64,000 nt of DNA. Source: Candidatus Hermodarchaeota archaeon (GTDB lineage: Archaea; Asgardarchaeota; Thorarchaeia; Thorarchaeales; Thorarchaeaceae). The notes below the pieces were generated by a model, which was not told the origin of the DNA, made no database searches, and saw nothing but the letters and a program-made list of their open reading frames with translations. Of the stretch, positions 36,476 through 48,560 are shown one piece after another. The stretch spans positions 107,477 to 171,476 of the forward strand of contig JBHLLF010000003.1 of assembly GCA_048885865.1 (NCBI GenBank), read 5' to 3'. Positions within the stretch are counted from its first letter, which is position 1; each line of letters starts with the position of its first letter. Made by a program: the position numbers and the translations under genes.

Positions 36476-38080
36476 GTGCCAAAGAAACGTGTCGTCTTCG
36501 AGCCTTCGGGGCTTCGAATCGCAGTTGAGGAATCAAACACTGTCTTGGATGCGGCACGAAAACTTGGTCTGCACATCCCATCCGAGTGTGCTGGAAGAGG
36601 CACCTGTGGCAAGTGTTTCGTTACAATGGAGCCAGCCGCAGAACCATCACAAGAAGACATGAAACACATTTCAGAAGTAGACATCGCGCGGGGGGTTCGG
36701 CTAGCCTGTGAACATAGGATAAAGGCCGACACCAGAGTCGTTATTCCACATGCGTCAAAAGCCAAGATACTCATAGATGGGATTACGAGCTCTATGGATT
36801 GGGATATTGACGATGGTCTTGCTGGTCAGATGGGCATAGCTATTGACTTGGGAACCACAACAATTGTTGCATACTTGATGAGTATGGAGAATGGAATTCA
36901 ATTTGGACAAACGGCATCGCTCAATCCACAGGTCATCTATGGTGAGGACGTTATGTCCCGCATATCTTATGCTAGTCTTGAAGAAGGTGGTGCGAAGATC
37001 CTCAGGGACATTGTCCTGCGTAGGCTTGATGAACTCATTATTGAGTTGACATCATCAACTGATATTGACATTGAAACTGTCACTAGACTGTCTATTGTTG
37101 GCAATCCTGCAATGCATCACCTATTGCTAGGATTGGACACCACCTCCCTGGGAAGGTCCCCCTTTGAGCCAGTAGTACGTGATGCTCTTAATACCAACGG
37201 AGACGTATTGGGAATCAAGTCTAATTCCAAGGTCAGTGTATATATTGCTCCGAATATTGCAGGATTTGTAGGGGGAGATACTGCTGGGTTCATTCTGTCA
37301 CAACGATTGGATGCCACTGATGAAATTGTACTGGGGATTGACATTGGAACAAATGGCGAGATCGTTCTCTCTGTTCGAGGACAATTATTCTGCTGCTCTA
37401 CTGCAGCGGGATCTGCCTTTGAAGGTGCTACGATTAAACATGGTATGAGAGGGCAAGAGGGAGCAATAGAGCACCTGTCAATAGCGAATCCAGAGGAGAA
37501 ACCTAAGATTTACGTCATCGGAGATGTATTGCCTAAGGGCTTATGTGGTTCAGCTATTGTAGATGCCACAGCCCAGCTACTAAAGTCCGGCATTGTTGAG
37601 CCTGGAGGCCTGATGCTAGATTCAACCAGAGTGATTCATACAGATGAGGGGAAAGCCTACATCATCGTCGATTCAGGGGAGAGCAACTCAGAAAGGCGTG
37701 TAGTTTTCACACAGACAGACGTTAGACAGGTGCAACTGGCAAAGGGGGCGATTCTTGCTGGAGCAAGCATCTTGATGGAGTCTGCGGGGATAGCGATATC
37801 GGACATCGATAAGCTGTTGCTAGCGGGTGCATTTGGGAACTACATCGATCCATTGAATGCACTTAGTATCGGACTTCTGCCTCCAATTGACATGGACAAG
37901 GTGATTCCAGTCGGCAATGCAGCTGGAGAAGGTGCTAAGAGAATGTTATTATCTACTAGAGAGAGGACGCTGATTGAAGAGATTGTCAAGAAGATAAACT
38001 ACCTTGAGCTAGCTAGATATGAAAACTTCGACAAGATTTTCGCCCGGGCGACTACACTTCAGGCAAGGATGCCTCTATAA
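36476..38080 (+). CDS. ATP-dependent corrinoid reductive activator (RACo/RamA-like ASKHA with a 2Fe-2S domain)
   Basis: 'CAGRGTCGKC...RLAC', 'DLGTTT', 'NPQ..YGEDVMSRI', 'DIGTNGE', 'QLAKGAI', 'AGAFG'. Confidence 0.9.
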   Translation: MPKKRVVFEPSGLRIAVEESNTVLDAARKLGLHIPSECAGRGTCGKCFVTMEPAAEPSQEDMKHISEVDIARGVRLACEHRIKADTRVVIPHASKAKILIDGITSSMDWDIDDGLAGQMGIAIDLGTTTIVAYLMSMENGIQFGQTASLNPQVIYGEDVMSRISYASLEEGGAKILRDIVLRRLDELIIELTSSTDIDIETVTRLSIVGNPAMHHLLLGLDTTSLGRSPFEPVVRDALNTNGDVLGIKSNSKVSVYIAPNIAGFVGGDTAGFILSQRLDATDEIVLGIDIGTNGEIVLSVRGQLFCCSTAAGSAFEGATIKHGMRGQEGAIEHLSIANPEEKPKIYVIGDVLPKGLCGSAIVDATAQLLKSGIVEPGGLMLDSTRVIHTDEGKAYIIVDSGESNSERRVVFTQTDVRQVQLAKGAILAGASILMESAGIAISDIDKLLLAGAFGNYIDPLNALSIGLLPPIDMDKVIPVGNAAGEGAKRMLLSTRERTLIEEIVKKINYLELARYENFDKIFARATTLQARMPL

Positions 38081-38208
38081 TGCCGTTGGCATAATGAAAC
38101 ATATATGGCAGGCTGTATGAGAACTTCATTGAGCGTGTAATGAATAACTCAAGCACCTAGAAGAATGCAGAGGTCGGCGGGCGATCGAATAGGAATGGTG
38201 CAAGGTCT

Positions 38209-38832
38209 ATGAATGAACTCACAGAAGCCTTGGCTGAGCTAGAAGAGAATACTGTCCAAGAAATGGTTGAGAAACAGATTGCTGAGGGTAGAAACCCACT
38301 CAAAATCCTCGAAGACCTAAAGCAGGGAATGGATATAGTGGGTAAACGATTCTCAGAAAACGAGTACTTTTTGGTTGAGCTTGTAGTGTCTGCAGAGATC
38401 TTCAACAAAGCATTGGAGGTTCTTGAGCCAAAACTCTTGGAAACCCAATCAGGAGAGGAGAAGGGCAAGGTCGTGATTGGAACAGTCAAGGGAGACATCC
38501 ACTATATAGGCAAGAACCTTGTTGTTGCATTTCTCAAGTCTAACGGATTTGAGGTCTATGACTTGGGTGAGGATGTAGCGCCAGAGAAGTTCATTGACAA
38601 GCTAAAGGAAACAGGAGCCACAATCTTAGCTTTGAGCGGACTTATCACAACCACGCATGATGTAATGCGAGAAACTGTCGATGCTTTGAAGGCAGCTGGC
38701 ATTCGTGACAAGGTCAGTGTCATGATAGGAGGATGTGATGTCAATCAGGAAGTCGTAGATCACACCGGTGCAGATGCATTTGGAAGGGACGCAGTCAGTG
38801 CAGTGGAAGTGGCTAAGAAGCTCCTGATTTAG
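38209..38832 (+). CDS. Corrinoid (B12-binding) protein of a methyltransferase system
   Basis: 'GTVKGDIHYIGKNLV' (DxHxxG), 'LSGL', 'IGG'. Confidence 0.92.
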   Translation: MNELTEALAELEENTVQEMVEKQIAEGRNPLKILEDLKQGMDIVGKRFSENEYFLVELVVSAEIFNKALEVLEPKLLETQSGEEKGKVVIGTVKGDIHYIGKNLVVAFLKSNGFEVYDLGEDVAPEKFIDKLKETGATILALSGLITTTHDVMRETVDALKAAGIRDKVSVMIGGCDVNQEVVDHTGADAFGRDAVSAVEVAKKLLI

Positions 38833-38883
38833 CTTTCATCCATTGAAGGCGAAACGGCCAAATGCCAGTTCTACCTGATTGTA

Positions 38884-39768
38884 GTGATTCGATTGTCTGG
38901 AGAAGAACTTGCAGGACCGTTGGATATCAACTACATCAGAACTTGCGATTGTCCACCAAATCATATCAATTGCCTGACTGCAAAGGAGTGGATGCAGCAT
39001 CAGATTGCTGTCTGGGAATTTTTCTACGAGAAACGCGACATCAGGGATAAGAAAATCCACCCTGCAGTCTTCCCCATCGCACTTCCAAAGAAATGCATTG
39101 AACTCTTTACGCACCAAGGAGAACTGGTCATTGATCCATTTGTGGGGAGTGGTACCACACTTGTGGCCGCAAAGGACACCAATAGAAATGCAGTTGGTTT
39201 TGATTTGAAGCAGGAATATGTTGATCTTTCTAACGAACGGGTGAAGCCTCAGGAGAAGAACAATGGTACGCAGCTAGCAATTTGTGTTGAAGCGCATAAT
39301 GTAAAGGACTATCTGAATGATGAAACAGTATCTCTGTGCATCACGTCTCCTCCTTATGCGAACTTGCTGAATAGAAAGAGACGAAACAAGAGCGTGCGGG
39401 GAAACCTGAGAAAAGACGAACATTATCTCGAGGTACAGCAATACTCTGATGATCCTAGAGACCTCGGAACTATGGATGTGAGGAAATACGCAGAAACAAT
39501 TGGGACCATCTTCGAAGGAATTCTCCCCAAAATGCGCCGTAGAGGACATTGTGTAATCAATATCACTGATTATTGGTGGAAGAGTCAGAGAGTACCTGCG
39601 CATGTCTATGTCATCGACGCGCTACAAGATGTAGGATTTGAACTCAGGAATACGATAATCTGGGATCGAAGGAACATTGTGAACAAGGCGGGGATTTTCG
39701 GATGGCCAAGCAACTATATCACTCTCTCGACAACATTTGAGTACCTACTGCATTTCTGGAAACCGTAG
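38884..39768 (+). CDS. DNA amino-methyltransferase, likely N4-cytosine (SPPY)
   Basis: 'HPAVFP', 'DPFVGSGTT', 'ITSPPY'. Confidence 0.85.
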   Translation: MIRLSGEELAGPLDINYIRTCDCPPNHINCLTAKEWMQHQIAVWEFFYEKRDIRDKKIHPAVFPIALPKKCIELFTHQGELVIDPFVGSGTTLVAAKDTNRNAVGFDLKQEYVDLSNERVKPQEKNNGTQLAICVEAHNVKDYLNDETVSLCITSPPYANLLNRKRRNKSVRGNLRKDEHYLEVQQYSDDPRDLGTMDVRKYAETIGTIFEGILPKMRRRGHCVINITDYWWKSQRVPAHVYVIDALQDVGFELRNTIIWDRRNIVNKAGIFGWPSNYITLSTTFEYLLHFWKP

Positions 39769-39777
39769 CATCACTCT

Positions 39778-40857
39778 TCATATTCCGAGTGCTGAGAAGA
39801 CCAAATCCTGAACTTTCTGAGTGTTTTCTTTGACCACAGCCCAGATTTCATCATCATCCTCAAAGGGTGGCGTTTGTGTGGGAGGATTAAAGACAGCTCC
39901 GGTGAGGACAGACATCACTACTCCTGCTCCATATCGAAAGACTTCACGATTGTACCCACCGCCTGATATGACACTTAGACGACCGCTTGCCCATCTATGG
40001 GCGGCAGCATGGATTTCTTCCGTTACATAGCGAATTGTGTTCATTGTCAGATTCAAATGAGTCATAGGATCATCATAGTGTGCATCAAATCCAGGAAGGA
40101 AGAGAATGAAATCAGGTTGGTAGAAATTGAAGAGAGGTGGCACGATTCTATCGAACGCATATCGATATACTTCGTCTCCTGAGTCCATAGGAAAATGCAT
40201 GTTGATGTTGTAGCCAAGGCCCTCGCCCTCTCCTATATCCTCGATGAAACCATCATGTGGGTATATCCACTCAGGATCTTCATGGAACGAAATCTGCATG
40301 ACTCCAGAATCATCATAGAAATAAGCCTGAGTTCCGTTTCCATGGTGAACATCGAAGTCTGCTATCAGAATGCGTTCATATCCCAGGTCTTTAAGACGGT
40401 ACACGGAGGCTGCAACATCATTGAATATGCAGAATCCGCCACCAGTTTCGTAGCGAGCATGATGAAATCCTCCCGTTGGAGAATAGGTGTGACAAACCTT
40501 CTTCGAATGGATAGCCTCAACTCCAGTCACAGTTGCACCACTCGTAATCCTGGCATTATTGTATATTCCCTTAAACCCCGGAGTGTCGATGTCAATCTCA
40601 CCTTTTCCAGTTTCTGATATCTTTCTGACCTTTTCCAAATACTCCTGAGAGTGGATTCGACTTAGAAGCGACCTTGCCAAAGGCTTCGGTTTAATTATCT
40701 TCACGTTGGGATGTTCAAGGAATCGAGTTTCTTGAAGGAAATCCCTGACCATTTGAAAACGGCCAACACGAATGGGGTGTTTTGAGCCAAAGTCAAAAGT
40801 TTCGAGTTCTGGACTCCATAGGAACCCTGCTTTACATTTGTGAATGGAAGGACTCAT
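39778..40857 (-). CDS. Histone deacetylase / AcuC-family Zn deacetylase
   Basis: 'GGFHHA', 'GFCIFND', 'DFDVHHGNGTQ', 'GFDAH..DP', 'GGGY'. Confidence 0.92.
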   Translation of the reverse strand: MSPSIHKCKAGFLWSPELETFDFGSKHPIRVGRFQMVRDFLQETRFLEHPNVKIIKPKPLARSLLSRIHSQEYLEKVRKISETGKGEIDIDTPGFKGIYNNARITSGATVTGVEAIHSKKVCHTYSPTGGFHHARYETGGGFCIFNDVAASVYRLKDLGYERILIADFDVHHGNGTQAYFYDDSGVMQISFHEDPEWIYPHDGFIEDIGEGEGLGYNINMHFPMDSGDEVYRYAFDRIVPPLFNFYQPDFILFLPGFDAHYDDPMTHLNLTMNTIRYVTEEIHAAAHRWASGRLSVISGGGYNREVFRYGAGVVMSVLTGAVFNPPTQTPPFEDDDEIWAVVKENTQKVQDLVFSALGI

Positions 40858-42409: not shown

Positions 42410-45259
42410 ATGGATATCAGCAAACGAATAGTGGTGACCTTTGTAGTCGTGTCACTGGTGCCAATTCTGATTATAGCGGCACTCTCTGCAAATAGTGTTT
42501 TTACAACATCAAACGAGAATGCTGCTGATGCCGCAGAAGCGCTTAGGACTGAGGAACTTGCCAATCTTCTGAGGATTTCGGAAGACACTGCGTCCTTCAT
42601 TTCGGAGAGAATGCAGCAATACTTCGATGGCGTCTACATGATGGAGAAGTATGCTGAAGACCTATTCAATGAGAGAATTAATGCGACACCCCAATACTCG
42701 TACTTCTGGGATCCATCCTTGGAATGGTTTCACAGTGGAAGGGATATACCCGGGAGAAATCCAGCCACATATGACGAGGCGTATGATTCGAATGACATCT
42801 CTTTCGATGTCAGCTGCTGGTACATGCCAACTGATGATTACCAAACTCCAAATGATCCTTGGGACTGGAGTCCTACCACTCGAAATCTCATAGAGATCTC
42901 TAGCAACATGGACAATGTCTATCGCTCGCTGCATCAGGCCAGTGAGGACTATATATGGCTATACATGGGCTTCTCTCCGGATATTAGCGATACACGCCTT
43001 TTCAGGAACTATCCCTACGACAATCTCTTCTACTTCGAGGACTGGTACGGTCCGGGTCTGGATTATGATCCAACTATAGAAGAGTGGTACCTTAACGCAG
43101 CTGCCGTACTAGATGACAGCATCGCGTTTACAAGTCCCTATGGAGACCCCTCCACTGGTCTAGTCATTTCAATGGGACGCCCCATTCACTTTGACAATGG
43201 AACGCTAATCGGGGTCGTATCGGCTGACGTGACCCTTGACACGATCATGGCGAATGTGCTTGGCATAGAAGTCTTAGAGAGCGGCTATGCCTATCTTTTG
43301 GAATCAGATGGAGGACTCATAGCACATCCGGACTTGGTTGCAGAGGGGCAGACCCTAAATGAAGCTGAGTTCTCTGGAGCTAGCTCGACGGAGATTGCAG
43401 CATTCACATCGCTTCTGCCTACAATTCTATCTGAAGAGAGTGGACAGGATACATTCCAGAAACGAGGTGAGGAATGGTATATCACCTACTCGAAGGTCAA
43501 TGTGACAGGCTTTGTGCTTGCCATCGTTGTTCCCTCAGCAGAAGTGATAGGACCTGCTACGAATATTCTGAATCTCGTCCTTGGCCAGACCTTTTTGCTT
43601 ACCATAATCCTAGGCGCAATGCTGGCTGGCGTGGCTGTAGGAGTTGCTTTCATTTCTTACAGGAGAGGAAACGCTGTAGTGGAGCCCATAAAGGAGATGA
43701 CACGTCTAGTGACGAAGATGGCAAGCCAGGACTTTACTCGCGGTGTTTCAACTGCAGGAGCAATGTATGAAGAGGTTGGTACCACCGTTGATGCACTGCT
43801 GAACTTCCAAGAAGCAATCAGATTCGGAAATCAAGCCTTCATTCGGGGTGACCTGAACCGAGCCCTGGCGAACTATCAAAATTTGCTCGAAATTAGTCGC
43901 AGCCTCAATATTGAGATTGGCGAGCAAACAATGTATCTGAACATTGGAAATGTGTTCCGTCAGCGTGGAGATACAGGTAACGCGATGGATTACTATGAAC
44001 AGGCATTAGCACTGGCAAAGATGCTCCTTGAAAGAGCCCGGCAAGAGGATGCAGAAGAAACTGATGCCTTGGTTAGAGTCGCTTCAGTCTATCACAACAT
44101 GGCACTCGTCGAGATGGACAAGAACAATCCCAAAAAGGCGATGGAGCTGCTAGAGGATGCTGTAGCGATTGACCTTACTCTAGGCAACCAGAGAGGCCTT
44201 GCAAAACGCTTCGATGCGCAAGGACTTGTCTTGGTAAGGGAAGGCAGATACAGCCAGGCCCTTTCAAAGTTTGAAGAAGCACTTAGAACTGCTGCTGCTG
44301 AAGGCTATGAAAGAAGCATGGCATACATTCACTATCACATGGGCGAGCTCTTCCAGGTTCAAGGAAAACTGAAGAAGGCCGAAGATGAATACAATGACGC
44401 AATTCGTCTTGGAGAAATAACTGAGGAGTTCTGGCTGGTCGTCTATGCTATGCAGAATCTGGCTGATGTCTTGGATCAGCGGGATAAGCCGAGTCACGAG
44501 ATCAGGCGCAAGGCTGAGAGATTGAAACGTTCAATCATGTTCAAGAAGAGCGTTATTCTCGTTATCGACTACTCGGGGAGCATGCAAGCTCAGAACAGGA
44601 TCAGAGCTGCAGTTCAGGGTGCGAAGGAGATTGTAGAAACTCAAGTCAATCCACAGGATGAGGTGAGTATCATAGTCTTCAACTCATCATTTAGAGAGAT
44701 TCTCCGACTTACTAGGAAGGGAGAATATGAACGCCCCAGAGATAGCCCGATCATTCGTGCCCTAGACTCTCTCAGGCACCCTAATTATGCAACAGCATTC
44801 TACGATGCTCTAGGTAGGGCTCTTGAGGAACTTGATAGGATTGAGTCAAGCGAGCACAGATGGGTAATAGCCCTGACAGATGGCCAAGACAATAGCTCTG
44901 AGAAGTACTCACTTGATGCATTGGAAGGGATCTTCACTGAGGAAGATAGACATCGAAGAAAGAGACCTCTGACCATTGAGGGATTCATCAGGGATAACCA
45001 TCTCGATGTCAACTTAATTATAATTGGCGTAGGTGATGAGCTGAAGGCACCAATTGAAGCCAAGGTGAGGTCACCGATCACAGGGCGAAGAATGACCTTT
45101 GAAGAATTACTTGATTCAGTGTGTGACCACATCCCTCAGGGACAATATCTCTCGGTAGTTGACAGCATAGATGTGAGAAGTGACATTGAGAAAGCCTTCC
45201 AGGAGGTTGGAGTGATGATGGCTCAACTGGAAGTAGGAGGAAGTACAGTAGATTTCTAG
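42410..45259 (+). CDS. Membrane receptor: TM-dCache-TM-HAMP-TPR-vWA
   Basis: Two TMs; Cache motifs 'EWY..FTSPYGD..GVVSADV', 'SGYAYLL..G.LIAHP'; HAMP 'EPIKEM'; TPRs 'YLNIGNVFRQRGD..AMDYYEQAL'; MIDAS 'DYSGS', 'TAFYDA', 'LTDGQDN'. Confidence 0.85.
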   Translation: MDISKRIVVTFVVVSLVPILIIAALSANSVFTTSNENAADAAEALRTEELANLLRISEDTASFISERMQQYFDGVYMMEKYAEDLFNERINATPQYSYFWDPSLEWFHSGRDIPGRNPATYDEAYDSNDISFDVSCWYMPTDDYQTPNDPWDWSPTTRNLIEISSNMDNVYRSLHQASEDYIWLYMGFSPDISDTRLFRNYPYDNLFYFEDWYGPGLDYDPTIEEWYLNAAAVLDDSIAFTSPYGDPSTGLVISMGRPIHFDNGTLIGVVSADVTLDTIMANVLGIEVLESGYAYLLESDGGLIAHPDLVAEGQTLNEAEFSGASSTEIAAFTSLLPTILSEESGQDTFQKRGEEWYITYSKVNVTGFVLAIVVPSAEVIGPATNILNLVLGQTFLLTIILGAMLAGVAVGVAFISYRRGNAVVEPIKEMTRLVTKMASQDFTRGVSTAGAMYEEVGTTVDALLNFQEAIRFGNQAFIRGDLNRALANYQNLLEISRSLNIEIGEQTMYLNIGNVFRQRGDTGNAMDYYEQALALAKMLLERARQEDAEETDALVRVASVYHNMALVEMDKNNPKKAMELLEDAVAIDLTLGNQRGLAKRFDAQGLVLVREGRYSQALSKFEEALRTAAAEGYERSMAYIHYHMGELFQVQGKLKKAEDEYNDAIRLGEITEEFWLVVYAMQNLADVLDQRDKPSHEIRRKAERLKRSIMFKKSVILVIDYSGSMQAQNRIRAAVQGAKEIVETQVNPQDEVSIIVFNSSFREILRLTRKGEYERPRDSPIIRALDSLRHPNYATAFYDALGRALEELDRIESSEHRWVIALTDGQDNSSEKYSLDALEGIFTEEDRHRRKRPLTIEGFIRDNHLDVNLIIIGVGDELKAPIEAKVRSPITGRRMTFEELLDSVCDHIPQGQYLSVVDSIDVRSDIEKAFQEVGVMMAQLEVGGSTVDF

Positions 45260-45266
45260 GAGGTGA

Positions 45267-46715
45267 ATGAAGTTGTCAAAGATGGCAAGAACCAAGAAGA
45301 AAGGCAGTTTCCGCAGGAATGTCATACTAACATTCGTCACAATTTCGATCATTTCTCTAGGAGTCACTGGAGGAATCTCATACTTCTTTGTAAATTTGAT
45401 TGGAGACTTCACCACTACCGAGAGCACAAATGCTCTCGAATCACAGATTCAGACCAACATGGATCTTACCGGTGAGAAGACAGCACTCGTCATTAATCAG
45501 AAACTATCAAATGCGGAGTCTATGATTGCGGCACTAGCCGAGGAAGCAGAGAAGCTTCTAAGTGATGAATCAACATACATACCTCGAAGAACATACTACG
45601 ACTACTATTTCGAATATGGATCTCCAGGAGAGTATCCAGCTGATACAGCCTATGATCCCAATTATGAACTTAATGTGTCATGGACATTTAGCAGCTGGTA
45701 TGTCCCGCCCTCAACAGTTGCTGATTATCAGCTGTATGAGGACGAGAGGCTCGCAAGGATTTCAAACATCGACCAAATGTTTCAATCAGTCCATGAACAG
45801 CTTGACTTCAGGTGGCTGTACGTTGTTTTCAAAGATACTAACATGTTCATCAACTATCCAGGAAGCTTGCTACCCATCGAGAATCGACTAATTGATCCAT
45901 GGTATCCAACAACAGACTTCTTCTACACAGAGGTTGAGGACGGTGATGGTGATATGGTCTTTGTAGAACCATATTTCGACCCGCTTGAAGGAGTTCTCCT
46001 TGTGACCATTGGTCGAGCGATTTACTTCGAGAATGGCACTCTCATTGGTATTGTTGCTGGAGATATTACAATAGCAGATATCAATCAGGAAGTTCTTGAT
46101 GTTACTGTTCTAACATCAGGTTATGCCGCTCTTGTAGAGAGCAGTCTTGGACTGGTAGTTGCACATCCAGAGGTTCCAGACGAAGCGTACGAAACAGGAT
46201 TGCCTGCTCTTACATTCGTTGAACGTAATACTGATGGAAGTCCAGCATTATCATCCCAAGATGTAGACCAGATACGTTCAGGCGCAACCGGATTCCTAAG
46301 ATACACTCGGGATGGTGAAGACTTCATCCTAGTTTACACTCCAGTTGGCAAGGCAAATTGGATTTGCATCATAGTCGTACCGGTTGATGAAGTATTGAAT
46401 GCAATTCCTGAATTAGAGGCACGTATCGAGGCTGCAAACACTCAAGCAACATTATTCATCCTAGCGATAACAGTAGCAGGAATCATGATAGCCGCAGCTG
46501 TTGCTGTTGTGATATCAAACCAAATCACGGGACCTCTCCAATACATGATGGACCTCGCAACAAAGAATGTCGCAGCTATGATTAAACAAGAACCGCTCGA
46601 TACCCTTGACCTGCAGGTGGACAAGACATATACTTCAAAGGATGACGAAATAGGAGAGCTAGCACGAGCATTCCAGGGAATGCTGGATTCAATTAAGGAT
46701 GATGAGTCACAGTAG
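45267..46715 (+). CDS. Membrane receptor: TM-dCache-TM-HAMP with no output domain
   Basis: Paralogous Cache region ('FVEPYFD', 'GIVAGDI', 'SGYAALV..VVAHP'); ends right after HAMP 'DEIGELARAFQGML'. Confidence 0.85.
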   Translation: MKLSKMARTKKKGSFRRNVILTFVTISIISLGVTGGISYFFVNLIGDFTTTESTNALESQIQTNMDLTGEKTALVINQKLSNAESMIAALAEEAEKLLSDESTYIPRRTYYDYYFEYGSPGEYPADTAYDPNYELNVSWTFSSWYVPPSTVADYQLYEDERLARISNIDQMFQSVHEQLDFRWLYVVFKDTNMFINYPGSLLPIENRLIDPWYPTTDFFYTEVEDGDGDMVFVEPYFDPLEGVLLVTIGRAIYFENGTLIGIVAGDITIADINQEVLDVTVLTSGYAALVESSLGLVVAHPEVPDEAYETGLPALTFVERNTDGSPALSSQDVDQIRSGATGFLRYTRDGEDFILVYTPVGKANWICIIVVPVDEVLNAIPELEARIEAANTQATLFILAITVAGIMIAAAVAVVISNQITGPLQYMMDLATKNVAAMIKQEPLDTLDLQVDKTYTSKDDEIGELARAFQGMLDSIKDDESQ

Positions 46716-46733
46716 CTATATGAGGTGTGAATT

Positions 46734-48560
46734 CTGACCTTAGACGATTGGTCGATAGAGAAGTCGAGGCTAATCTATGGACTCAGTAGCAACGATCTTC
46801 ATTTCCTGGACATCAATGAGCAAGGTGATTTGGTTATCAAACTTGATGACAGCACAATCTCAATCCGTGAGATTGTGAAGCGAATCGAAGCTGCAAATGG
46901 AACTCGAACAGGCTATACATCTTCCTTTACCCTGCGAATCCCCCAGCTCATCTCGTACCAAGTCAGGAAGCTGGTTGCCACGTTTCACAAAGTGATCGAA
47001 GCTATGGATTACAAAGGTGAATTTAGTGCTGTATATCCAGTGAAGGTGAATCAGCGACGTGACTATGTAGTTCAAGTCCTCCACACCAATCCTGATTACG
47101 GCCTTGAGGCAGGGACGAAGGCAGAGCTGTTCCTCATCAAATCCGTGTTAGAGATGGAGAAGCATCGACTCATAATCTGCAATGGTGCTAAAGATCCTGA
47201 ATATCTCAACACAATTCAGGATTGCATTGAGGAGGGCTACAACATTGCGGTATCAATTGAGTCACTTCACGAGGCCCAGCTCATTGTAGATAGATTCCGT
47301 CCTGGGAAAGTCAACATGGTTCTGAGAATAAAACCGTATGTGACAGCCAGGGGCCATTGGTCACACTCTGCAGGACGCGATTCCAAGTTTGGTTTGAGTA
47401 TACATGACCTATTCGATGTGGTAGGCCTGCTGAAGGCAAAAGGATTCGAGGACTCTGTTTCCACTATTCTGGGACATGTTGGCTCTCAAATCACAGCGAT
47501 TGAGGATTTCGTAGGATTTGCAGAGTTTATGACGAGGACATTTCTGGAGTTGCGGCAAAATGGCCTCGCAGGCCTCACACTGATTGACTTTGGTGGTGGA
47601 CTCCCCATTGACTATACTAGTACGTACGCACCAAACTTGATGGAGCAATACGCTGAATCGTTAGTTAAAGGCATCCAAAATGAGCTACTCAAATGGCCGA
47701 AGGGATTAGCTCCAAACATAATGGTTGAGTCTGGACGAGGACTAACAGCCCTCGGATCTGTGGTGCTAATCAAAGCCTTGGAGGTAAGGTCTGTATTCCC
47801 AAGCCTTGAGGACATTGGCGAGAGCGGCATGAGTCAATACAAGGCAGTGCTGGAAGAGATAGCAGATGCTGCTTCTATCAGCGAGCTTGCGGAAGTCTGG
47901 AACACCTTTCAGATTGGCAAGAGCACCTTGGCAGATTCCCTTGTTGCACTGAGGGAGAGAGAGGCACTAATCGGTCAGGTGAGAGCTGAGATTCGCAGGA
48001 GAATCGTAAGACTAGGAGTAACGAGCTTGAGGTCTGACGCACTGAGTGAGAGCTTGTGGCATCCAGACCATATTGTTATAGGAAACTTCAGTGTGTTCAA
48101 CAGCGCCTGCGATTACGTTCTGGTGAAACAGCACTTCCCGATTGTTCCAATTCGCGATCTTCATCTTCACCCCGAAACGACTGTGCGGCTTTGTGACTTA
48201 ACTTGTGATTCGGATGGTGAGATTTCTCAGTTTCATAGAAAAGGCACTGGGGAGATTTGGTTCACTCGGGACTCCCGCCCGGTGACCATGCCTATAGGTC
48301 AGATGGGAGAGGGAATTCCTGTTGGATCAATCGAGAATATACCAGGCTCATATTTCGCTATCGCACTCACAGGTGCATATCAAGATGTGATTGAGATGAA
48401 CCACAATCTACTTGGTGACCTTCCTGATGTTGAAATCATCCTTAACAAAGAAGGAAAGTGGCAGGTTAGGTGGATGACCGGAGCTGAAAGCATGGAGGAC
48501 ATTCTAGAGGAGATGGGATTCGTTGGGTTCGACATAGACGAAGACCCATACATTTCCTGA
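46734..48560 (+). CDS. speA: Biosynthetic arginine decarboxylase-like PLP enzyme; probable CTG start
   Basis: 'VYPVKVNQ', 'GLEAGTKAEL', 'SKFGL', 'HVGSQI', 'DLTCDSDG', 'GAYQD'; upstream in-frame 'DWSIEKSRLIYG' N-terminal motif. Confidence 0.85.
   Translation: MTLDDWSIEKSRLIYGLSSNDLHFLDINEQGDLVIKLDDSTISIREIVKRIEAANGTRTGYTSSFTLRIPQLISYQVRKLVATFHKVIEAMDYKGEFSAVYPVKVNQRRDYVVQVLHTNPDYGLEAGTKAELFLIKSVLEMEKHRLIICNGAKDPEYLNTIQDCIEEGYNIAVSIESLHEAQLIVDRFRPGKVNMVLRIKPYVTARGHWSHSAGRDSKFGLSIHDLFDVVGLLKAKGFEDSVSTILGHVGSQITAIEDFVGFAEFMTRTFLELRQNGLAGLTLIDFGGGLPIDYTSTYAPNLMEQYAESLVKGIQNELLKWPKGLAPNIMVESGRGLTALGSVVLIKALEVRSVFPSLEDIGESGMSQYKAVLEEIADAASISELAEVWNTFQIGKSTLADSLVALREREALIGQVRAEIRRRIVRLGVTSLRSDALSESLWHPDHIVIGNFSVFNSACDYVLVKQHFPIVPIRDLHLHPETTVRLCDLTCDSDGEISQFHRKGTGEIWFTRDSRPVTMPIGQMGEGIPVGSIENIPGSYFAIALTGAYQDVIEMNHNLLGDLPDVEIILNKEGKWQVRWMTGAESMEDILEEMGFVGFDIDEDPYIS

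Follow-up and report, generated by a model that had tools for sequence, protein, structure and literature searches.

Two adjacent genes in a 64,000-nucleotide stretch of DNA from Candidatus Hermodarchaeota archaeon (GTDB family Thorarchaeaceae; assembly GCA_048885865.1, contig JBHLLF010000003.1, positions 107,477 to 171,476; hereafter the window) encode paralogous membrane proteins, called here LONG and SHORT. They probably form a kinase-less, hetero-oligomeric receptor with a protein-binding output, of a kind undescribed in the literature searched. The source genome is of the Thorarchaeota type of Asgard archaea (3.58 Mb, 87% complete). To our knowledge, the well-studied Cache-HAMP receptors all have an enzyme or a chemotaxis signalling domain at their end. 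The family considered here ends in protein-docking domains only, with an output-less second subunit and a soluble propeller protein, a design that suggests signalling through controlled protein binding, as is usually associated with eukaryotic receptors. Asgard archaea are the closest archaeal kin of eukaryotes, and because the pair also occurs in a member that is in culture, Lokiarchaeum ossiferum, it is open to experiment. An initial annotation of the window, made from the letters alone, had proposed a new receptor architecture of this type, and full-text literature searches gave no description of the pair's family. The propeller/zinc-ribbon component, the link to the arginine decarboxylase gene speA, the change in the ligand pocket and the homologs outside Asgard archaea are features beyond that annotation.

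Domain organization of the two receptor genes

The two open reading frames lie exactly where they had been placed, as neighbours 7 nt apart (Table 1). Judged by their sequences they are paralogs, as had been claimed: BLASTP aligns them with 29% identity over 449 aa (E 1e-41), through the first transmembrane segment (TM1), the dCache domain, the second transmembrane segment (TM2) and the first HAMP helix. The order TM-dCache-TM-HAMP had been assigned to both genes. Its sensor part is firm, with dCache_1 (PF02743) matched at 65.4 bits between TM1 and TM2 of LONG and at 60.5 bits in SHORT, against a Pfam cut-off of 45. Its HAMP part is less so, since the domain scores 23.1 bits in SHORT, slightly below the cut-off of 25, and is seen in LONG by way of relatives and a structure model only. 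PF00672 is matched by 11 of 25 diverse aligned relatives of LONG (best E 1.1e-13), two relatives, P0131 (26.0 bits) and P0140 (27.8 bits), exceed the HAMP cut-off, and the family consensus, RIVxPIxELT...GDL...E..L...F..L.RFGN, reads as a textbook HAMP.

Beyond this point LONG continues into tetratricopeptide repeats and a vWA domain with an intact metal ion-dependent adhesion site (MIDAS), and the initial annotation is borne out here by Pfam and by alignment. Many TPR models match (TPR_12 at 68 bits, TPR_1, TPR_2, TPR_MalT), and the relatives of this region by PDB sequence search are the TPRs of LGN/Pins (E 1e-12 to 1e-13). The vWA domain (PF00092/PF13519) is matched at 43.6 bits by VWA_2 and 30.2 bits by VWA; weak VWA_N matches reflect the N-terminal Cache part shared with alpha2delta and CACHD1. 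Across 68 relatives that are 20-79% identical to the query, no change is seen at the MIDAS residues D720, S722, T795 and D824 (LTDGQD), and S724 is kept in at least 90%. The asparagine of the RFGN motif at the HAMP-TPR junction, N474, is at least 90% conserved in this alignment and invariant in that of the 25 diverse relatives. An AlphaFold2 model of LONG, with a mean predicted local distance difference test score (pLDDT) of 86.9, has TM1 continuing into a long Cache stalk helix (2-86) and two Cache modules up to residue 375. TM2 and the first HAMP helix (AS1) form one helix (376-438), followed by a loop and the second HAMP helix (AS2, 454-478), which leads nearly unbroken into the TPR region, modelled as twelve helices (482-690). 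The model closes with a vWA fold of alternating strands and helices (713-939). As the initial annotation had stated, no enzymatic or chemotaxis output was detected: neither LONG nor SHORT has a Pfam or NCBIfam match at E<=0.1 to a kinase (histidine or Ser/Thr), methyl-accepting chemotaxis protein (MCP), GGDEF/EAL, cyclase, phosphodiesterase or phosphatase (PP2C included) domain. Matches to histidine kinase and MCP models are limited to the TM2-HAMP stretch.

Table 1. Receptor genes, their domains and the genes discussed beside them, in window coordinates
Feature	Position	Strand	Details and basis
LONG receptor gene	42410..45259	+	949 aa: TM1, dCache_1, TM2, HAMP, TPR, vWA
LONG TM1	42428..42484	+	Residues 7-25, after MDISKR; hydropathy 3.05, positive-inside count
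LONG stalk helix and dCache_1 (predicted extracytoplasmic)	42497..43534	+	Residues ~30-375; Pfam, PDB relatives, pocket alignment
LONG TM2	43586..43657	+	Residues ~393-416, then RRGN; hydropathy and model
LONG HAMP-like helix-loop-helix	43658..43843	+	Residues ~417-478; HAMP matches at family level, model
LONG TPR region	43844..44536	+	Residues ~479-709, twelve helices (482-690) and a capping helix; Pfam, model
LONG vWA	44546..45226	+	Residues 713-939, MIDAS D720-Y-S722-G-S724, T795, D824; Pfam, alignments, model
Intergenic spacer, LONG stop to SHORT ATG	45260..45266	+	7 nt, GAGGTGA, Shine-Dalgarno-like
SHORT receptor gene	45267..46715	+	482 aa: TM-dCache_1-TM-HAMP, then stop
Candidate propeller partner gene P3	40894..42363	+	489 aa, from Met at codon 19 of the open reading frame opening at 40840; database protein P0285
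Hist_deacetyl-family gene (histone deacetylase/acetylpolyamine amidohydrolase-like)	39778..40857	-	Pfam PF00850, 259 bits
speA-type biosynthetic arginine decarboxylase gene	46731..48560	+	NCBIfam; 16 nt after the SHORT stop

SHORT has a basic N-terminus (8 K/R before TM1), TM1 at residues 19-37, TM2 at 398-416, a HAMP at ~417-477 and an acidic end, DDESQ; EDE is also found among SHORT ends. The claim that it stops right after its HAMP holds, as the tail of ~66 residues beyond TM2 equals the median of 57 orthologs, that is, just a HAMP. Its AS2 (DDEIGELARAFQGML; DDEIGxLxRAFxGML) is nearly identical between Thor- and Loki-type proteins that are ~28% identical overall. The ratio of nonsynonymous to synonymous substitution rates (dN/dS) against close relatives is 0.02-0.04 for LONG, 0.045-0.05 for SHORT and 0.06-0.10 for the propeller gene upstream, values that place all three genes under purifying selection. 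A variant layout is found in the second pair of Heimdallarchaeota bin272 (L060:8675-10309), where SHORT has a 147-residue tail after TM2 with a Cys-rich, Zn-ribbon-like end (CDKC...CEDC...CPYC); this tail may be a partial fusion with the Zn ribbon of the partner. The C-terminus of LONG (window 45184-45259 and orthologs) is a conserved acidic/aromatic tail, AQLEVGGSTVDF here and ...EVEGFxxDY in relatives. This tail, or the acidic end of SHORT, could be a candidate peptide for binding to the TPR or the MIDAS.

The dCache domain is predicted to lie outside the membrane and the HAMP-TPR-vWA part inside, because lysine and arginine are enriched before TM1 and after TM2 (means of 2.4 and 2.7; the dCache side has 0.8 and 1.0), an enrichment seen in 57 of 68 family members. 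The vWA and Cache domains are therefore predicted on opposite sides of the membrane, as the proposed architecture has it.

Gumerov et al. (2022, PMC8915833) define dCache_1AA amino acid sensors by an AA_motif in the membrane-distal module, YxxxxRxWY and, after it, Y[x27-34]D. Neither window sensor carries this motif in full, its carboxylate-binding Arg being replaced in both: the LONG pocket reads YDPTIEEWY ... PYGD ... GVVSAD, with Glu at the Arg position, and the SHORT pocket reads W-YPTTDFFY, with Asp for Arg and Phe for Trp; the later Y and D are retained. Lokiarchaeum ossiferum and Promethearchaeum have the complete AA motif in LONG and SHORT alike. Among Thor-clade loci and their closest kin (L048, L053 and Heimdall locus a), both paralogs show Glu, Asp or, at one locus, Gln in place of the Arg, and the W, Y, Y and D of these Thor-type pockets are mostly retained.

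Conservation of the pair and its relatives outside Asgard archaea

The survey of the pair covered 41 related genomes together with GTDB species representatives. SHORT stands intact beside LONG in ~45 Asgard loci (24-99% identity). These belong to Thorarchaeota, Lokiarchaeum ossiferum, Promethearchaeum sp., Sigynarchaeum and others, the most distant at 24-30% identity, and a complete Heimdallarchaeota genome has two such loci. Every full-length Asgard locus obtained holds the pair: with one broken case (L008), a SHORT of ~460-600 aa follows directly after every full-length LONG that has enough contig. Three complete genomes carry one, two and one pairs, and no orphan LONG or SHORT copy was found in them at E 1e-8. 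Within the window's family the pair is present in 19 of 24 other genomes. Elsewhere in the phylum it is patchy, being found in 1 of 16 other sampled genomes in addition to the named Loki, Heimdall and Sigyn loci. Bacterial matches in the genome scan were limited to the vWA. The possibility that SHORT is a truncated, decaying duplicate without function, suggested by its want of any output domain, is as good as dismissed: the intact loci, its dN/dS, the conservation of its AS2 across phyla and its in-frame fusion to the long type in other lineages together rule out a remnant or pseudogene.

The broken case belongs to a single-contig relative (L008, G004:C1:195231-201077), in which LONG is interrupted in frame by a TAA where the FRNYP motif has its conserved Tyr, and the adjacent SHORT is homologous for its first 131 residues only, after which the sequence is unrelated. 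On the opposite strand, at a distance of ~180 kb, there is another, separate short-like gene. Either both partners were damaged together or these are assembly errors.

In a tree of the sensor halves, long-type and short-type clades are almost clean (3 label changes, compared with 17 in shuffles), and parallel sub-clades on both sides imply that the duplication is older than the sampled lineages and that the two genes have been inherited together. At loci L063 and L068, unlike all others, the LONG and SHORT sensors are sisters, with Shimodaira-Hasegawa-like approximate likelihood ratio test (SH-aLRT) values of 91 and 100. L068 is labelled Methanobacteriota and is the only non-Asgard archaeal record with a full pair.

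Natural fusions of the two genes make the heterodimer hypothesis directly testable. Eight short-then-long fusions of 1534-1652 aa were found (representatives at 50% identity), five of which (P0213, P0248, P0250, P0261, P0265) have a clean four-transmembrane hydropathy pattern, in-out-in-out-in. Their N-terminal half resembles SHORT nearly end to end (SHORT 2-480 to P0213 16-530, for example), their C-terminal half resembles LONG (LONG 7-878 to P0283 687-1567), and the MIDAS and RFGN motifs are retained. Protist proteomes are where the initial annotation had suggested looking for Cache-HAMP-TPR-vWA proteins, and EukProt holds two stramenopile entries, a fused form of 1636 aa from Mallomonas annulata (EP01041) and an unfused LONG form of 1015 aa from Platysulcus tardus (EP00753); contamination of these transcriptome-based entries is possible. 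Three contigs of giant-virus metagenome-assembled genomes (L101, L112, L113) carry long-type genes, one of them with a short-type gene just upstream, and no propeller partner was seen in these three viral loci. One representative is encoded on a 650-kb contig and is recorded as CAH6420882.1, 'VWA Cache recognition domain protein [uncultured virus]'. These homologs match the window proteins over the whole length, with equal domain order and equal MIDAS and RFGN motifs, and differ from them in the order short then long or in forming a single four-transmembrane chain. The architecture is thus not restricted to Asgard archaea, and full-length relatives in giant viruses and protists offer a handle on the movement of receptor architectures between groups.

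Fused proteins of the protist type, P0232 and P0248 among them, have many conserved Cys residues in their outer parts (CxxPxCPxDYG and YDPRCRSWY, for example) that are not found in the Asgard proteins, as is expected for disulfide-bonded eukaryotic ectodomains. Many protist and viral homologs have altered pocket residues, and in several fused proteins the pocket Asp is replaced by Asn, Val, Leu or Gly. In both halves of the tree the eukaryote and giant-virus sequences fall beside one Heimdall lineage (SH-aLRT 80-89). An approximately unbiased (AU) test, from which L063 and L068 were excluded, did not reject monophyly of the Asgard long-type sequences (p 0.19), and despite those SH-aLRT values a nesting of these sequences inside Asgard archaea next to Heimdall is for this reason not claimed. 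A wider scenario can be drawn, in which an ancient Asgard receptor was passed to eukaryotes as a pair, vertically or via giant viruses, and fused there into the four-transmembrane chain, with eukaryote-like, enzyme-free signalling by ligand-controlled recruitment of a cytosolic propeller through the MIDAS/TPR arm, and in which it was perhaps the source of the dCache and vWA pairing in alpha2delta/CACHD1. We regard this scenario as speculative and distinctly improbable.

Proposed receptor mechanism and its alternatives

HAMP domains function as dimers and usually feed histidine kinase, MCP, cyclase or phosphatase domains. We put the chance that LONG and SHORT are two subunits of one enzyme-free transmembrane receptor, with a TPR-vWA arm that binds cytosolic partners, at somewhat better than even. 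In the mechanism we infer, each subunit would hold its dCache_1 sensor outside and its HAMP inside; LONG alone continues beyond HAMP, its second HAMP helix leading straight into a TPR solenoid that carries a vWA with a working MIDAS. A ligand would occupy one or both Cache pockets, and the signal would travel via TM2 into a HAMP bundle of mixed LONG and SHORT chains. The bundle would then move the single TPR-vWA arm, and this movement would alter which cytosolic protein is held. The prime candidate for the held protein would be the propeller/Zn-ribbon protein of the same operon (P3), and the two winged-helix domains of the Thorarchaeota partner could carry the signal to DNA. With acidic Thor pockets lacking Arg and with speA following the pair, the ligand would more likely be an amine (agmatine, polyamine) than an amino acid.

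By sequence and by fold, the sensor is matched best by Mlp24, Mlp37, PctA-C and archaeal Cache kinases. With bacterial and archaeal dCache_1-HAMP receptors of this kind (PctA/B/C, Mlp24, Mlp37, mmHK1S), the window proteins have in common the input module and the predicted topology of TM1, stalk helix, dCache_1, TM2 and HAMP. The known receptors have MCP, kinase, cyclase, phosphodiesterase or phosphatase outputs, whereas the window's HAMP feeds a TPR-vWA arm or, in SHORT, nothing; the window receptor also differs in being an obligate-looking pair of paralogs and in having Glu/Asp for the motif Arg. A census of Cache outputs lists kinases, MCPs, c-di-GMP enzymes, phosphatases, cyclases, transcription factors and alpha2delta, and TPR/vWA is not among them (PMC4822843). 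As in LONG, alpha2delta and CACHD1 combine dCache_1 and a MIDAS-type vWA in one polypeptide, and CACHD1 (8s7c) and alpha2delta-1 (9vlg, 8x90) are among the sequence and fold matches. In those proteins the vWA sits within the first dCache_1, on the extracellular side (PMC8915833), whereas that of LONG is C-terminal (713-939) and predicted to be cytoplasmic, beyond TM2, HAMP and TPR; alpha2delta has neither HAMP nor TPR. The heads of integrin alpha/beta likewise bring together a propeller (FG-GAP) and a MIDAS-bearing, vWA-like beta-I domain, and here the genes for a beta-propeller with weak FG-GAP, ITFG2 and BBS2-type signals and for a vWA lie side by side. In the window, however, both propeller and vWA are predicted to be cytoplasmic, and the propeller matches are generic. 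No feature specific to integrins was found, and no search was aimed at one.

Support for a heterodimer comes from the adjacent 1:1 genes and the natural fusions, and is real but indirect. Since the fusions join short-type and long-type modules in one chain, the Rosetta-stone argument suggests that the LONG and SHORT modules work side by side. The same observations bear on a different arrangement, in which two separate homodimers are formed, LONG with two TPR-vWA arms and SHORT as an output-less ligand sink, decoy or lateral modulator in a mixed cluster, with no mixed HAMP bundles. HAMP receptors of the classical kind form homodimers, the pockets of LONG and SHORT differ (E vs D, W vs F) in a way that could mean different ligands, and the paralogs have been renewed locally in L063 and L068. 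Nevertheless, one short-type and one long-type module are united in the fusions, LONG and SHORT are strictly 1:1 and adjacent, with no orphans in complete genomes, and AS2 is better conserved than any other stretch of SHORT, although a homodimer with no output would have no signal to pass on. We consider the two homodimers unlikely. Less likely still is a membrane-anchored assembly scaffold that does not signal, loosely like the Bat proteins, in which the arm would permanently tether a cytosolic complex and the Cache domains would serve adhesion or stability. TPR and vWA are typical scaffold domains, no enzyme is involved and there is a weak NCBIfam match to the TPR of BatC. Bat (vWA in BatA/BatB, TPR in BatB/BatC) and MoxR-vWA systems also combine a membrane-associated vWA with TPR and lack an enzymatic domain. 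They have no Cache or HAMP, however, and come with MoxR AAA+ and DUF58 genes, and such partners are absent from the neighbourhood of the pair; the similarity of LONG to Bat consists of generic TPR and vWA matches far under cut-offs. A scaffold also sits poorly with TM-dCache-TM-HAMP, a dedicated module for signal input and transmission, with ligand-pocket residues (W, Y, Y, D) conserved in both paralogs and with a nearly invariant HAMP-to-TPR junction. The vWA might, finally, work with a MoxR- or chelatase-like AAA+ ATPase encoded elsewhere, the output being ATP-driven remodelling or metal insertion. Weak NCBIfam/Pfam matches to cobaltochelatase, ChlD and CoxE-type vWA hint at this, as does a giant-virus-type relative annotated by its source as 'Mg-chelatase subunit ChlD', but the chelatase/CoxE-type matches are far under the family cut-offs and no AAA+ gene is conserved beside the pair in ~45 loci, which makes this reading highly improbable.

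Returning to the two-subunit, enzyme-free receptor, several observations count against it or against parts of it. The window's own LONG sequence has no Pfam PF00672 match at E<=0.1, and the HAMP region is modelled at low confidence (pLDDT 54-69). The structure models are of single chains. The pair is missing from G017 (94% complete) and G019 (97%), both well-assembled genomes of the window's family, and is hence dispensable. The sisterhood of the two sensors in L063 and L068 fits local re-duplication or gene conversion and not strict co-divergence. On the output side, no propeller gene lies within the DNA covered at L053, L060, L061, L063 and L068, and output through DNA binding cannot be general, as Loki-type partners are without the winged-helix tail. 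On the ligand side, the correlation of speA with acidic pockets is confined to a single clade and counts as one evolutionary event.

Candidate propeller partner, speA and other neighbouring genes

The gene upstream of the pair, P3, encodes a protein with no transmembrane segment by hydropathy. In its AlphaFold2 model (pLDDT 82), propeller strands (13-274) are followed by a Zn ribbon (~301-328) and winged-helix folds (330-396 and 410-470); Pfam matches are Beta-prop_CGLA (33 bits) and Zn_Ribbon_1 (21 bits). P3 lies upstream of the pair in Thor loci and directly downstream of SHORT in Lokiarchaeum, Promethearchaeum, Sigynarchaeum and two further loci, and in Heimdall one homolog is convergent to the pair. 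Because it is kept beside the pair through these three gene arrangements, P3 is the leading candidate for a binding partner of the TPR-vWA arm. The Loki-type partners have the propeller and Zn-ribbon core in common with P3 and are without winged helices. A PDB sequence search with P3 gave nothing significant. Foldseek returned generic propellers (BBS2, Brat NHL, Tup1, WDR5, G-beta), all at E 1e-13 to 1e-14, and the winged-helix part was not resolved by the search; the BBS2, ITFG2 and integrin-like hints are leads only.

The gene after the pair is of the speA type by NCBIfam, with PRK05354 at 334 bits and TIGR01273 at 321 bits, both under the curated cut-offs of 369 and 624. It is adjacent to the pair in all Thor loci of sufficient extent, downstream and tightly spaced, and divergent in L053 and L055. 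It gives the only PF02784 match in the 87% complete source genome, in which no pyruvoyl arginine decarboxylase (PvlArgDC) was found. Archaea need agmatine for the agmatidine of tRNA-Ile. The speA frame is open from 46731, with its first canonical start, a TTG, at 46830 and no ATG, GTG or TTG earlier. The 5' part of the open frame encodes a conserved N-terminal stretch (LTLDDWSIEKSRLIYGL...) that is included in the 611-617 aa proteins of relatives, and translation may begin at a non-canonical codon (ATT or CTG) or by translational coupling.

An amine ligand is suggested by a pocket without its carboxylate clamp beside an enzyme that removes the carboxylate of arginine. As a hypothesis, to which we give a clearly less than even chance, the Thor-clade ligand would be an amine, with a link to agmatine or polyamine supply; the speA neighbourhood thereby suggests an assayable ligand class and output. 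Amine-binding dCache_1AM domains are reported from a single archaeal phylum, Halobacteriota, in the text of Cerna-Vargas et al. (2023, PMC10589655). Residues equivalent to D173 and Y144 are retained in the window sensors, the AM_motif itself being given in that paper only as a figure.

The neighbours of the pair are the Hist_deacetyl gene, the propeller protein, speA, a PP-loop protein, an M24 peptidase and an alcohol dehydrogenase (ADH). The Hist_deacetyl gene is divergent from P3, with ~36 nt between the starts, and is kept at this place in Thor loci only. Its family includes acetylpolyamine amidohydrolases, and such a role would fit the speA neighbourhood. Further upstream (window 36476-39768) lie genes for a RACo-type corrinoid reductive activator (Fer2 + Raco_middle + RACo_C_ter), a B12-binding protein and an N6/N4 DNA methylase, which are syntenic in many Thor loci and absent from Loki and Heimdall loci.

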